Source of the DNA: an uncultured Dehalococcoidia bacterium
Lineage (GTDB): Bacteria > Chloroflexota > Dehalococcoidia > Bin125
NCBI GenBank assembly: GCA_958295515.1
Contig: CATQGW010000001.1
Coordinates: 1,187,468-1,251,467 of the forward strand
Direction: 5' to 3'
Length of the DNA: 64,000 nt
The notes beneath the pieces were generated by a model. It saw nothing but the letters and a program-made list of their open reading frames with translations. It searched no databases and was not told where the DNA came from. The first letter of the stretch is position 1. Each line of letters starts with the position of its first letter. This document shows, one piece after another, positions 40,212 to 44,975 of this stretch. The translations under genes and the position numbers were made by a program.

Positions 40212-40548
40212 AGCGCTCGCCGCCCAATGGCTGCGCGCCCGCGGCTACCAGATCCTCGAACGTAACTACCGCCGACCCTGGGGCGAAGCCGACATCATCG
40301 CCCGCGACCCGCACGGCGTCACCGTGATCGTCGAGGTGCGCAGCCGCCGCGACCCGCACTACCCGCTCGAACTGCTCGAATCGGTCGGACCGCGCAAACA
40401 GCATCAGCTGCGCCGCCTCGCCCACGGCCTGCTCGCCGAGCGCGAGCGGCAGATTGAGATCCGCATCGACGTGATCGCCGTCTCGACCGGCCCCGACGGA
40501 CGCCTGCGCGTCGTCTCCCACATCCCCAACGCCGTCGCGGACCGCTGA
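40168..40548 (+). CDS. YraN family (UPF0102) endonuclease-like protein; no canonical start codon found
   Basis: RRKQALGRAAEALAAQWL..GYQILERNYR..GEADIIA..IVEVRSR..RIDVIAV; start coordinate approximate. Confidence 0.8.
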   Translation, partial: PSGSRRKQALGRAAEALAAQWLRARGYQILERNYRRPWGEADIIARDPHGVTVIVEVRSRRDPHYPLELLESVGPRKQHQLRRLAHGLLAERERQIEIRIDVIAVSTGPDGRLRVVSHIPNAVADR

Positions 40549-40580
40549 TCCGAGCACCCCGCGCCTATCCTGTCGCCACC

Positions 40581-40850
40581 ATGCCGATCTACGAATACCA
40601 CTGTCCGGCCTGCCGCCGCGCCGTCGAAGTCTTCCAGCGCCGCGCCCGCTCCGAGGGCGATGCGCCGCCGCCCTGTCCCGAGTGCGGCGGCGGCGATCTC
40701 CAGCCCCGCTTTTCGCGCTTTTCCGCTCGCTCCGAGCTCTCGTTCCCCGGCTTCGACACGATGGACGATGTCGACGAGAACGACCCCGAGTCGGTCGCCG
40801 CCTGGCGCAAATCCGCCGGCGCGCCCGAAGAGCTGCCCGCCGACCTGTAG
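40581..40850 (+). CDS. FmdB family zinc-ribbon protein
   Basis: MPIYEYHCPAC ... CPECGG. Confidence 0.88.
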   Translation: MPIYEYHCPACRRAVEVFQRRARSEGDAPPPCPECGGGDLQPRFSRFSARSELSFPGFDTMDDVDENDPESVAAWRKSAGAPEELPADL

Positions 40851-40868
40851 GCTGAGCGCGAGGTCCCG

Positions 40869-41213
40869 ATGCCGATCTACGAGTACCGCTGCCCCAGCTG
40901 CCGCGCCATCAACGAGGCCTTTCACCGCTCGCTGGAGCACGCCAAAGCGCCCGCCTGCGAGCAATGCGGCTCCGACGGCCTGCGTCGCGTCGTCTCCCGC
41001 TTCGCCACCCCCAAGACCGAGTCTCAGGTGCTCGAGCAATACGGCTCGCCCGGCCCCGGCGCAGGCCCCGACGCCTACCGCGACCCGCGCCAGATCGGCC
41101 GCTGGGCGGAGCAGCGCTTCGAAGAGATGGGCGTCGAAATGCCCGCCGAAGCCAAGCAAATGATCGACGCCGCCCGCGACGGCGACCTCCCCGCCCCCGT
41201 CAAAGACCTCTAG
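40869..41213 (+). CDS. FmdB family zinc-ribbon protein (second, tandem)
   Basis: MPIYEYRCPSC ... CEQCGS..LRRVVSRF. Confidence 0.88.
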   Translation: MPIYEYRCPSCRAINEAFHRSLEHAKAPACEQCGSDGLRRVVSRFATPKTESQVLEQYGSPGPGAGPDAYRDPRQIGRWAEQRFEEMGVEMPAEAKQMIDAARDGDLPAPVKDL

Positions 41214-41299
41214 CGCTGGCTACACTCGGCGCTAGAGGAGCCCCACCATGGCCACGCCCACACGCAAACCCCGCGGCCTGCCGCTCGACGCCTTCTTGC
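41109..41299 (+). repeat. 191-bp direct repeat, copy 1
   Basis: Matches 42064-42254 (offset 955) with 6 substitutions; covers the FmdB 3' end, a hairpin, RBS and first 17 codons of the next gene. Confidence 0.97.
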
Positions 41300-41556
41300 A
41301 CGACGGCCCGGTCGATCACGCGGACCGCGAGTGGCTCTTCCGCCAGGGCGCGCGCAACCGCGAATATTTCTGGGAGCGGCGCGACGAACTCATCCGCGAC
41401 CACCGGGGCAAGTGGGTAACGGTCTACGGCGATTGCCAGCTTGTCATCGGAGCTGACCGCGCCGAAATGCGCCGCAACATCCCGCTGGACGACCTCCGCG
41501 TCGCCTACACCGAACTGCTCGACGACCTGGTTGAGTGCCCAAGCATCTTCAGCTGA
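41248..41556 (+). CDS. Small DUF5678-like protein
   Basis: GAGGAG RBS; NREYFWERRDELIRDHRGKWVTVYGD resembles the DUF5678 pattern; TGATG overlap with the downstream protease. Confidence 0.65.
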   Translation: MATPTRKPRGLPLDAFLHDGPVDHADREWLFRQGARNREYFWERRDELIRDHRGKWVTVYGDCQLVIGADRAEMRRNIPLDDLRVAYTELLDDLVECPSIFS

Positions 41557-42065
41557 TGCCCGACGTCCGCGTTCCCGTCTGGGTTGAGCCGCCGCGCCGC
41601 CGATATCAGCCGCTACAGATGGAATCGTTCGGCCGCGTATTCGCCGATGCACTCGTCGCCGTTGGCTCGCGTGAGTGGTTCACACGCTTCCTAATCGACA
41701 CTGGCGCGGACTTCACAATCCTCAGCGCGGGCGACGCCGAAGACCTCCTTGTCGACGACTACCTGGCAATTGATTTCGAGCACGATCCGTTTCGCGTCGT
41801 CGTGGGCGGGATCGGCGGCCTCATGCGCTGCGTCGCGCGAGAAGCCGACCTTGCATTCCGCACGGAAGGCGGCGACGCGATCGATATTCGCACGCCCATT
41901 CTCGTCGCGGAGCGCGTCTACCTGCCCGATGGCAGACGACAAGCGGCGCCCCCCAGCCTGCTCGGACGCGACATCCTCGGGCGCGGCGCCCTCACGCTGG
42001 CGTGGCGATTGCCTGCTGAGCTCGAGCTGAGCAACCTCCCGCCCACCCCCTCGGCGCTGCGCTGA
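41556..42065 (+). CDS. Retropepsin-like (clan AA) aspartyl protease
   Basis: FLIDTGADFT catalytic motif, VGGIGG flap, LLGRDIL; ATG overlaps the upstream TGA. Confidence 0.85.
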   Translation: MPDVRVPVWVEPPRRRYQPLQMESFGRVFADALVAVGSREWFTRFLIDTGADFTILSAGDAEDLLVDDYLAIDFEHDPFRVVVGGIGGLMRCVAREADLAFRTEGGDAIDIRTPILVAERVYLPDGRRQAAPPSLLGRDILGRGALTLAWRLPAELELSNLPPTPSALR

Positions 42066-42254
42066 GCAGCGCTTCGAAGAGATGGGCGTAGAAATGCCCG
42101 CCGAAGCCAAGCAAATGATCGACGCCGCCCGCGACGGCGACCTCCCCGCCCCCGTCAAGGACCTCTAGCGCTGGCTACACTCAGCGCTAGAGGAGCCCCA
42201 CCATAGCCACGCCCACGCGCAAACCCCGCGGCCTGCCGCTCGATGCCTTCTTGC
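42064..42254 (+). repeat. 191-bp direct repeat, copy 2 (contains an orphan FmdB 3' fragment, 42064-42168)
   Basis: See copy 1; the start codon is ATA here instead of ATG. Confidence 0.97.
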
Positions 42255-42514
42255 CGACCGAGTCGTTCGACGAGGCCGATGCCAACGAGATCCACGAGCG
42301 GCGCTCCCGCAATCGGGAGTACCTCTTCAGCCGCTGGGACGAGCTGCTGCGCCTGCATCCCGGGCAGTGGGCGGCTGTCTACTGCGGCGACCAGCTTCTG
42401 ATTGGCGACGACGCAATGGAGCTGCGCCGCCGCATACCATCCGACGATGAGCGGCGCGAAGCCTTTATCTGGCAACTCGGCGATCCGCCCGGTGTCGTGA
42501 GCATCCCCGGGTGA
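42203..42514 (+). pseudogene. Second DUF5678-like gene with ATG>ATA start change
   Basis: Open frame from ATA 42203; same ATPTRKPRGLPLDAFL start, then divergent but alignable RNREYLFSRWDELLRLHPGQWAAVYCGD. Confidence 0.65.
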
Positions 42515-42565
42515 CGCCAAGCGCAGTTCGCATTGCGGCGTGGGTCGCGCCGCCGCGCCTTACTC

Positions 42566-42691
42566 CGTCATTTCTGCTTCCTCTTCCGTCATTCCCGCGA
42601 AAGCGGGAATCTCCCCGCTCGACCTCCCAAACCCCGCGATGAGATTCCCGCTCGGGGGCGGGAATGACGGAAGTGGCGGCGGGAATGATGG
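42566..42691. repeat. Inverted REP doublet with a 21-bp half-unit on each side
   Basis: CGTCAT at 42566 and 42587; CGTCATTCCCGCGAAAGCGGGAATCTC; reverse GAGATTCCCGCTCGGGGGCGGGAATGACGG; GGGAATGA at 42660 and 42681. Confidence 0.92.
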
Positions 42692-42905
42692 AAACGGGAG
42701 CCAAGCGGGTTACGCCAAGGTCTCTACATATGCAGGCGGCTGGAAGCCGCCGAGGGGGTTGGGCGAACGCCCCCGATTGCCCGACTGATCATCGCTCGAT
42801 ACATTGCCTGCGGCTTGCGTAGCGGCTCAGGCCGCCGCGCCTGGAACCGTGTTCGGCGCAGAGCTGGGACGCTCTGCGGCTCGCCGCCCGATTGGGAGGA
42901 TGCAG

Positions 42906-44975
<2,070 letters not shown>

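Follow-up and report, generated by a model that had tools for sequence, protein, structure and literature searches.

We analyzed a 64,000-nt window from the genome of an uncultured Dehalococcoidia bacterium (contig CATQGW010000001.1 of assembly GCA_958295515.1, positions 1,187,468 to 1,251,467; coordinates below are those of the window) and studied a locus in which a 191-nt direct repeat leads into each of two small genes, the first of them coupled to a protease gene. All features lie on the plus strand unless noted. The locus opens with a tandem pair of FmdB-family zinc-ribbon genes, the first at 40581..40850 (Pfam Zn_ribbon_8, E 2.3e-12) and the second, encoding 114 aa, at 40869..41213 (Zn_ribbon_8, E 8.2e-13; TIGR02605, E 3.3e-13). 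Copy 1 of the repeat (41109..41299) spans the tail of the second FmdB gene, a leader with a hairpin and a Shine-Dalgarno sequence, and codons 1-17 of small protein A, a putative divergent DUF5678 relative of 102 aa (41248..41556). The next gene encodes a 169-aa retropepsin-like aspartic protease (41556..42065) and its start overlaps the stop codon of A in TGATG. Copy 2 of the repeat (42064..42254) starts inside the stop codon of this protease and spans an orphan FmdB tail (42064-42168), the leader with its hairpin, and codons 1-17 of small protein B, which has 103 codons and an ATA start (42203..42514). A 16-codon remnant of B's own protease (42511..42560) and a REP/MITE-like (repetitive extragenic palindrome/miniature inverted-repeat transposable element) inverted doublet with no assigned strand (42560..42700) close the locus. 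We use S for a small DUF5678-family protein such as A or B, P for its retropepsin-like protease partner, G000 for the window's own genome, and G001-G007 and similar handles for relatives of the genus.

Genome-wide alignment bears out the repeat much as the original prediction had described it, with six mismatches between 41109-41299 and 42064-42254 (at 41135, 41204, 41228, 41250, 41262 and 41289). Five of the six fall at third codon positions, four of them synonymous and one removing the ATG (ATG to ATA), and the remaining one perfects the hairpin by replacing a G.U pair with A-U. This excess of third positions is suggestive, with borderline significance (P(≥4 of 6) = 0.05). The 191-nt repeat occurs in only two copies in the whole 2.62-Mb genome, and since the next best match there is 26 nt, it is neither a chance similarity nor a dispersed element. 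Its content runs from the 3′ 105 nt of fmdB, including the stop codon, through a 34-nt leader with a GC-rich hairpin to the first 17 codons of the small protein. The hairpin, an inverted repeat CCTCTAGCGC..GCGCTAGAGG at 41207..41238, holds the FmdB stop codon TAG in its 5′ arm and has the AGAGGAG Shine-Dalgarno sequence at its 3′ arm; the leader folds with a minimum free energy of -33.6 kcal/mol over a 79-nt window. We dropped sequestration of the Shine-Dalgarno sequence by this hairpin as a feature of the family: the structure is strong in this genome, but RNAalifold on 12 leaders returned 4 trivial pairs and 0 compensatory changes. A scan of 40300-43000 for sigma-70 promoters and intrinsic terminators found none.

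A and B share 16 of their first 17 residues and then only 35 of 85 (41%), with 58.6% DNA identity between the bodies, an abrupt switch that agrees with the original prediction. The reading frame of B opens only at 42191. As also predicted, its start at 42203 is an ATA, and no canonical start follows until a TTG at codon 17. The assignment of both proteins as DUF5678-like stood in part. In direct scans, neither A nor B matched any Pfam family at E ≤ 1 or any NCBIfam model, and the PF18929 (DUF5678) profile had no match in their own genome. Profile comparison, in turn, favors the assignment: a profile built from 20 relatives recovered 117 cluster representatives among 1.84 billion proteins, 24 of 63 scanned profile matches passed the PF18929 cut-off, and hhalign aligned the A-family profile with 14 PF18929-positive proteins over 79 columns (probability 99.3%, E 7.4e-21), a comparison that is partly circular in that the 14 were found with the same profile. 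These profile matches support placing A and B in a divergent branch of DUF5678.

In the predicted structure of A, whose predicted local distance difference test (pLDDT) score is 80, a pair of helices leads into a small three-stranded sheet accompanied by two short helices. Confidence is low for residues 1-20 (block means 47 and 57) and falls below 50 for residues 97-102; the tails, which are disordered, are unlike in the two unit types. Comparison of the fold with solved structures gave no match, with a best Foldseek E of 2.2 and a best Z of 3.5 in the VIA wide search (root-mean-square deviation 3.5 Å over 57 residues), far below a meaningful score. The best scores in the ESM Atlas, 0.87-0.88, lie under the 0.9 lead level; one cluster there has 26% DUF5678 members. 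No Pfam DNA-binding domain was found in A or B. Among more remote relatives, the 254-aa protein P0085 consists of three DUF5678 repeats, and P0078 has two DUF5678 stretches after an N-terminus with a sub-threshold Phd/YefM match.

In P, the motifs D48-T49-G50 and L136-G137-R138-D139 are invariant in all 25 aligned relatives. The protein matches Pfam Asp_protease_2 with E 8.9e-4 and 20.4 bits, below the cut-off of 24.3, and has no NCBIfam match. Its structure model (pLDDT 80.4) has Foldseek probability 1.00 to the proteases of feline immunodeficiency virus (FIV), human immunodeficiency virus (HIV) and Rous sarcoma virus (RSV) and to Rickettsia APRc, with 130 chains at E ≤ 0.001. Template-modeling (TM) scores against the retroviral proteases are 0.59-0.71 when normalized to the target, and the APRc chain 5c9f_A matches with E 3.6e-4, TMq 0.50 and 17% identity. 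By its motif and modeled fold, P is a retropepsin-like aspartic protease. Each chain carries a single DTG, so that an active enzyme would need two chains, and a co-fold model places Asp48 of two copies at one cleft. P also has an N-terminal extension of about 45 residues, and by eye it shows no signal peptide.

The second unit had been described as lacking a protease, which proved wrong. The segment 42511-42560 encodes VTPSAVRIAAWVAPPR from a GTG that overlaps the stop codon of B in GTGA, and the public protein P0034 starts with MTPSAVRIAAWVAPPRR and continues as a retropepsin-like protease with DTG and LLGRD, departing from the other aligned proteases at its C-terminal end. From this match to the start of an intact protease, B once had a protease of its own, whose gene now ends after 16 codons where the REP cluster begins. 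The REP doublet noted after B is real, with about 190 BLAST matches in the genome for 42560-42700 and inverted repeats. Its core is GTCATTCCCGCGAAAGCGGGAAT; GCGGGAATGAC occurs 308 times in the genome, and the depth of the element in metagenome contigs is about 10^4.

The coupling of S to P extends well beyond this locus. The original prediction had suggested a search for further paralogue pairs, and the genome indeed holds six S genes and four P genes plus the remnant. Across nine genomes of the genus we counted 66 S loci and 58 P loci, with 0 to 15 S per genome. An intact-looking P lies directly downstream of S at 43 of the 66 loci; at 12 the P is split, stopped or partial, and at 11 it is missing. 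A P match falls within -60 to 250 nt downstream at 55 of the 66. The converse arrangement, an intact-looking P without S, occurs only once. In a class-level sample of 151 genomes, P is present in 30 and S in 15, and by coordinate comparison 27 of 36 S matches have P directly downstream.

At the level of the phylum, PF18929 is present in 50 of 301 sampled genomes. We retrieved 30 PF18929 loci; in 11 the match is a domain of a larger protein (about 520-590 aa) and in 18 it is a stand-alone small gene, and a same-strand aspartic-protease gene lies downstream of 17 of these 18. Eleven of the 17 were identified with a hidden Markov model of P and six as an open reading frame (ORF) with D(T/S)GA, five of which were scanned and match Pfam aspartic-protease models at E < 0.01; one further locus, L051 from the unpublished genome G380, was left out of this count and would make it 18 of 19. 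Of eight partner proteases from the phylum that were scanned, four (L055, L062, L076 and L077) pass at least one Pfam aspartic-protease model. The S-P pair is thus conserved across Chloroflexota. Fusions of S to P also exist, namely P0064, in which DPA replaces DTG, and P0107. These were seen among the profile matches; a search for longer fused relatives gave none at E ≤ 0.001, which is weak evidence. A single-protein scan for related loci added none to our set, returning only two that it already contained, labelled as Dehalococcoidia metagenome-assembled genomes. Separately, in 16 of 19 genomes of the Chloroflexota family f73 the PF18929 match belongs to a long open frame of 549-594 aa and not to a small protein (L057-L059, L063, L067, L069, L073, L074, L078 and L080).

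Most copies in the genus stand in tandem arrays of one to five units with a period of about 850-870 bp, and the arrays sit among housekeeping genes. G007 has two arrays of four units, and G006 has one array that reads S P, S P, S P, S, S P. A four-unit array of G007 and the five-unit array of G006 occupy the same site, between CofD-CofC and an acyl-CoA dehydrogenase. At this CofC/acyl-CoA-dehydrogenase site, the window's own genome carries a single, intact-looking orphan S without P (G000:C2:97866-98108). This genome is 2.6 Mb in size and 94% complete, compared with 3.0-3.4 Mb in seven of its eight genus relatives, and it seems to have contracted its arrays.

Adjacent units in G007 share patches of 73-266 nt at the array junctions, comprising the 3′ end of the protease, the leader and the 5′ end of S, that are 92-96% identical, compared with 62-70% for other copies of the same junction segments. 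Recombination at junctions therefore appears to be routine in these arrays, as judged from their sequences. We also noted a box, GCGCTACCCTGA(C/T), that resembles a -10 element (TAnnnT) and in most units precedes the ATG by about 20-25 nt (leaders L036, L037, L038 and L040). In downstream units the box is formed by the end of the preceding protease gene (codons for ALP, then stop). It is kept, as non-coding sequence, before the first unit after FmdB, so that the ancestral repeat unit extended from one box to the next.

Decay in these arrays strikes P far more often than S: P is lost or broken at 23 of the 66 loci and the reverse is seen once, in counts from related genomes that are not independent of one another. 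One protease paralogue in the window's own genome (G000:C1:116265-116744) has an internal TAG while its upstream S is open, so that here the protease is decaying first.

We modeled the interaction of the two proteins by co-folding two copies of P with one copy of A. The interaction prediction score from aligned errors (ipSAE) was 0.78 (0.83, 0.77 and 0.78 in separate runs), compared with 0.16 for the best control, and at least 42% of contacts were common to the runs, with a partner pLDDT of at least 76. In the tool's calibration the mark is reached by 116 of 157 solved complexes and by 2 of 215 mismatched pairs, and these counts are rough here, where the prediction used our own alignments and three chains. 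In the model, the best-defined contacts connect the first helix (27-38) and strand 83-87 of A to residues 31-44, 63 and 100-108 of one protease chain, chiefly its N-terminal beta hairpin. The predicted interface also includes residues 15-24 and 93-102 of A, together with residues 46, 48 and 50-51 of both protease chains and residues 81-86 of the second chain, which form the catalytic cleft. Co-folding, which had been proposed as a check, thus predicts that A binds the protease, and S in general probably binds P.

This geometry leads to a model in which S would bind the P dimer through its folded domain and place its flexible tail in the catalytic cleft, acting as a cognate, antitoxin-like inhibitor of a protease that would be costly to the cell when free. 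Toxin-antitoxin (TA) modules are generally expected to decay by losing the toxin and keeping the antidote. We favor inhibition on account of the pattern of decay, in which P is the partner lost from loci where S remains open. An inhibitor would also account for the translational coupling of the two genes, their many copies in arrays, their patchy distribution and rapid divergence, and the tendency of decay to take P while sparing S. We propose this role of S, as inhibitor or antitoxin-like partner, tentatively, and give it a little less than an even chance. A wider proposal is that DUF5678-retropepsin pairs would form undescribed TA-like modules, possibly serving in defense, in which the tail acts as a pseudosubstrate plug and arrays diversify at their junctions, yielding a chimeric A and an orphan B; this is possible, if doubtful.

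The same array history would hold if S were instead a substrate or precursor of P, or a pro-domain that acts in trans for folding or dimerization. In the co-fold, A 15-24 and 93-102 share the interface with protease residues 46, 48 and 50-51 of both copies, where a substrate would also be expected to lie; the tails are disordered and differ between unit types, and S-P fusions exist, as they would for a pro-segment. An S that only serves P would not, however, be expected to persist as an orphan, yet 11 of 66 S loci have no P and 12 have a degraded one. In addition, the largest and best-defined predicted contacts run from the folded helix and sheet of A to the N-terminal beta hairpin of P and not from the tail. 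We therefore regard a substrate or pro-domain role as somewhat unlikely.

To place the repeat in its history, we compared the locus with its counterparts in six relatives. The tandem FmdB pair is kept upstream of the array in all six, with 89-94% identity for the second gene, and is followed by one (G003 and G005), two (G001 and G007) or three (G002 and G006) S-P units. The two FmdB genes themselves (40581-41213) resemble each other over their first 47-49 residues only (43-48% identity), and a functional link to the S-P units is not evident. Decay is seen at this locus too, as a 24-residue remnant of P in G006, S without P in G002 and G006, and a P split over two frames in G007. All 12 S genes at the locus in these relatives start with MA(T/A)P(T/A)..., and several continue with ..GLP.D.FL, so the 'constant N-terminus' of A and B is a motif of the subfamily. 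The original prediction had proposed looking in relatives for different bodies behind the same 17 codons. One to three units with different bodies do follow FmdB there, and they share the N-terminal motif.

Every unit in the relatives has its own leader, Shine-Dalgarno sequence and ATG, and each of the six has a single FmdB tail at the locus, so that a second copy of the tail is peculiar to the window's genome among the seven compared. Between species, the FmdB tail is 85-96% identical and the leader plus 17 codons 73-79% identical, compared with 95% for the latter between the two copies here, indicating that the two copies were recently homogenized or share recent ancestry. The C-terminus of B (AFIWQLGDPPGVVSIPG) and the protease remnant match the first-position unit of G002, G006 and G007, and less closely that of G001, marking B as an orthologue of these units; they also match the intact proteins P0009 and P0034. 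The C-terminus of A, in turn, resembles later or sole units of the relatives. Since the B unit is of the type found in first position in four of six relatives, B is the old neighbor of FmdB, and the A-P unit now stands in front of it.

The edges of the repeat differ in character. Its left edge in copy 2 is the native C-terminus of P, since ...SALR or ...SALP also ends several orthologues, and with fmdB this edge shares microhomology only (CGCTG-GC-GAGCAG); its right edge is the end of A/B homology, at codon 17/18. The older unit (B plus protease) lay directly after FmdB; in the history that we propose, a duplicative rearrangement would have put A-P between them. The left join would then be an illegitimate microhomology join from the protease stop codon to mid-fmdB, and the right end would be homologous, at codon 17/18. 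The 191-nt repeat would be what this rearrangement copied: the FmdB tail, the leader and 17 codons. It could have come about by unequal crossover of two haplotypes, by a circle that was excised and inserted again, or by a duplication and later deletion, each route taking two or three steps. Unit 2 has decayed since, its protease cut to 16 codons at the REP cluster and its start reading ATA in this assembly. We had also considered the N-terminus of A to be derived from B, on 16 of 17 residues identical to P0009, and have withdrawn this: the P0009 strain may share the rearrangement, and both unit types score 11-14 of 17.

We conclude that the locus is very probably the contracted remnant of a tandem S-P array and that the repeat is a recombination scar. 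The repeat is best read as the one-off scar of the junction recombination common in these arrays, and not as a programmed expression site. One half of the original interpretation, a recombinational stacking of two diverged alleles with the displaced one silenced or decaying, fits well with relatives that carry one to three units and with a B whose protease is cut to 16 codons and whose start is ATA. The other half, a fixed expression site with a silent allele, does not: the units of relatives each have their own leader, Shine-Dalgarno sequence and ATG, and a copy of the FmdB tail is found in none of the six.

An alternative within the same array is gene conversion, acting in an existing order of FmdB, A-P and B with its protease, with a tract from the shared N-terminal codons leftward into fmdB and without insertion or reordering. 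The G007 junctions, with their patches of 73-266 nt at 92-96% identity, offer a precedent, and the leader and N-terminal codons are homologous between units at 73-79%. The FmdB tail, however, has no homologue at a protease/S junction, so that the left end would still need an illegitimate join, and it is B-type rather than A-type units that come first after FmdB in four of six relatives. We consider gene conversion unlikely.

Metagenome reads, available as Logan contigs from four runs of one sample in one study, allowed us to examine the assembly and the state of B. The body of B (42206-42492) shows no differences in these contigs. A-P is present in a form with about 3% differences, including one 862-nt contig in X2 that covers 41232-42093 with 28 differences. 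Contigs cover both 42059 and 42066, at least 31 nt from contig ends, in the variant as well as the reference form, so the join of the protease stop to the FmdB tail is present in the reads, in two strains. At 42205, roughly a third to a half of the depth in each of the four runs supports a G, with which B would start at ATG; the site is inside the repeat, where copy-1 contigs may be misplaced. P0009 is 98% identical to the body of B and has an ATG start. The ATA start of B is a recent change in an orphaned gene and is probably still polymorphic. Scanning metagenome contigs with P0009 for a strain with an intact B gave 460 pattern matches, none of them a relative.

These data also bear on whether the locus is a programmed cassette, with one expression site behind FmdB, silent alternative bodies downstream, and recombination between the repeats that switches the expressed body. 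The repeats are direct, so that a crossover would delete A-P, and B would acquire an ATG if the exchange fell in the last 49 nt. The G at 42205 at about a third to a half of depth in four runs, the ATG-start B in public data and the homogenized junction patches that recur in relatives' arrays all agree with switching. Against it, a switch would yield half a module, B's own protease being destroyed; the relatives' units each have an ATG, Shine-Dalgarno sequence and leader of their own; and the FmdB-tail copy is absent from all six. No recombinase gene was found among the immediate neighbors, which are an RNase HII-like ORF, the two FmdB genes and a proton-pyrophosphatase-like ORF (the first and last named by eye). 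The joint of a 955-bp deletion or circle was likewise absent among the contigs listed for the four runs, a weak negative since contigs cannot show rare forms, and the G at 42205 lies inside the repeat, where contigs of copy 1 may have been placed. Taken together, we regard a programmed cassette as very unlikely.

Short-read contigs that span the protease-stop/FmdB-tail junction also make it unlikely that the two units belong to different strains in a chimeric assembly, a possibility raised in the original prediction. An assembly artefact, with the haplotypes of two strains at one locus joined one behind the other, is exceedingly improbable: the metagenome does hold at least two strains, about 3% apart over A-P, and repeats invite misassembly, but contigs cover 42059 and 42066 in both forms, the X2 contig crosses the junction, and the genome is in 6 contigs with the locus on one of 1.29 Mb.

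On balance, we lean toward the whole explanation taken jointly, namely an array remnant, a recombination scar, and an S that would act as an antitoxin-like inhibitor of P. Several points weigh against it. Every scenario that we have written for the rearrangement would need two or three events, and the first 17 residues fail to separate the A and B lineages, being 11-14 of 17 identical to either type in relatives. The four runs represent one sample and may be the assembly's own source. The asymmetry of decay is partly biased, in that P is a 1.7-fold larger target, S was counted irrespective of its start codon and B itself is counted as an S. As to function, the toxicity of P and its inhibition by S are inferred, and the tail modeled in the cleft is equally compatible with S being a substrate. 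S matched no known DNA-binding or antitoxin fold in the Foldseek and VIA comparisons (best E 2.2 and best Z 3.5). PADLOC returned only PDC-M08B at E 0.028, and PHROGs gave nothing for A, B or P and one weak match (E 0.033) for the small protein of a paralogue.

The repeat itself is an ordinary recombination scar and the idea of cassette switching is probably not right; the gene pair behind the repeat is unstudied. If S blocks a cytoplasmic, HIV-protease-like enzyme, the pair would be the first TA-like or self-restrained system to use an aspartic protease, and it would provide an initial clue to the function of DUF5678, which occurs in both bacteria and archaea. For questions of specificity, the 66 natural variants in the genus form a ready data set, with many of them in arrays and with chimeras, orphans and broken copies among them.

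Among known systems, the loci for contact-dependent inhibition (CDI) and Rhs carry arrays of orphan toxin/immunity modules behind a large secreted main gene. As in those arrays, a displaced downstream module here lacks a good start and is homologous to the expressed copy over a short stretch (191 nt, 97%). There is no large secreted main gene with an exchanged tip, however, and units in relatives are complete while the displaced unit here is broken. The analogy to polymorphic toxin/immunity arrays in the original prediction therefore does not hold, as FmdB, a 114-aa zinc ribbon, is fused to neither A nor B and the relatives' units are complete genes.

Bacterial retropepsin-like enzymes include APRc of Rickettsia conorii (PMC4140852), RloA of Pseudomonas aeruginosa (PMC11957051) and the protease of the Pseudomonas fluorescens RimABK system (PMC11957791). 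P shares their retropepsin fold, as the match to APRc illustrates, at low identity to APRc. These enzymes are membrane-bound or secreted, or take part in ribosome modification, and the openings of their abstracts do not mention DUF5678. The CRISPR-associated retropepsin-like proteins of Sulfolobales (PMC3973734) do not, from what that source presents, correspond to this pair. Our literature search, which covered titles and the openings of abstracts, found no paper describing a DUF5678-retropepsin pair.

Retroviral proteases resemble P in their fold and in the single DTG per chain, and an upstream element may restrain the enzyme in both cases; fused S-P forms exist as well. In retroviruses this element, p6* or the transframe region, is a linear peptide upstream of the protease. 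S differs as a separate, folded protein of about 100 aa, P has a roughly 45-residue N-terminal extension that is the main docking surface in the model, and there is no polyprotein. In the staphopain-staphostatin pairs, the enzyme is a secreted protease of the cysteine class, encoded in one copy per operon. S-P would share with them a specific cytoplasmic partner encoded beside the protease and occupying its active-site cleft, as predicted by the co-fold. Here the protease is of the aspartic class, the gene order is different, and P has no signal peptide by eye.

Type II TA modules as a general class have the small partner upstream and the enzyme downstream. The likeness to S-P lies in a small upstream gene that overlaps a larger enzyme gene, in many pairs per genome with patchy occurrence between housekeeping genes, in predicted binding that involves the tail of A and the catalytic residues, and in decay that leaves the small partner. 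No DNA-binding fold was recognized in S in the Foldseek and VIA comparisons, and arrays of up to five diverged units are unusual for the class; to our knowledge, no TA family has an aspartic protease as its toxin, and our literature searches turned up none. Overall, by analogy, the S-P module would be most like a type II TA pair or an operon-encoded protease/inhibitor pair, and we file it as a member of neither.

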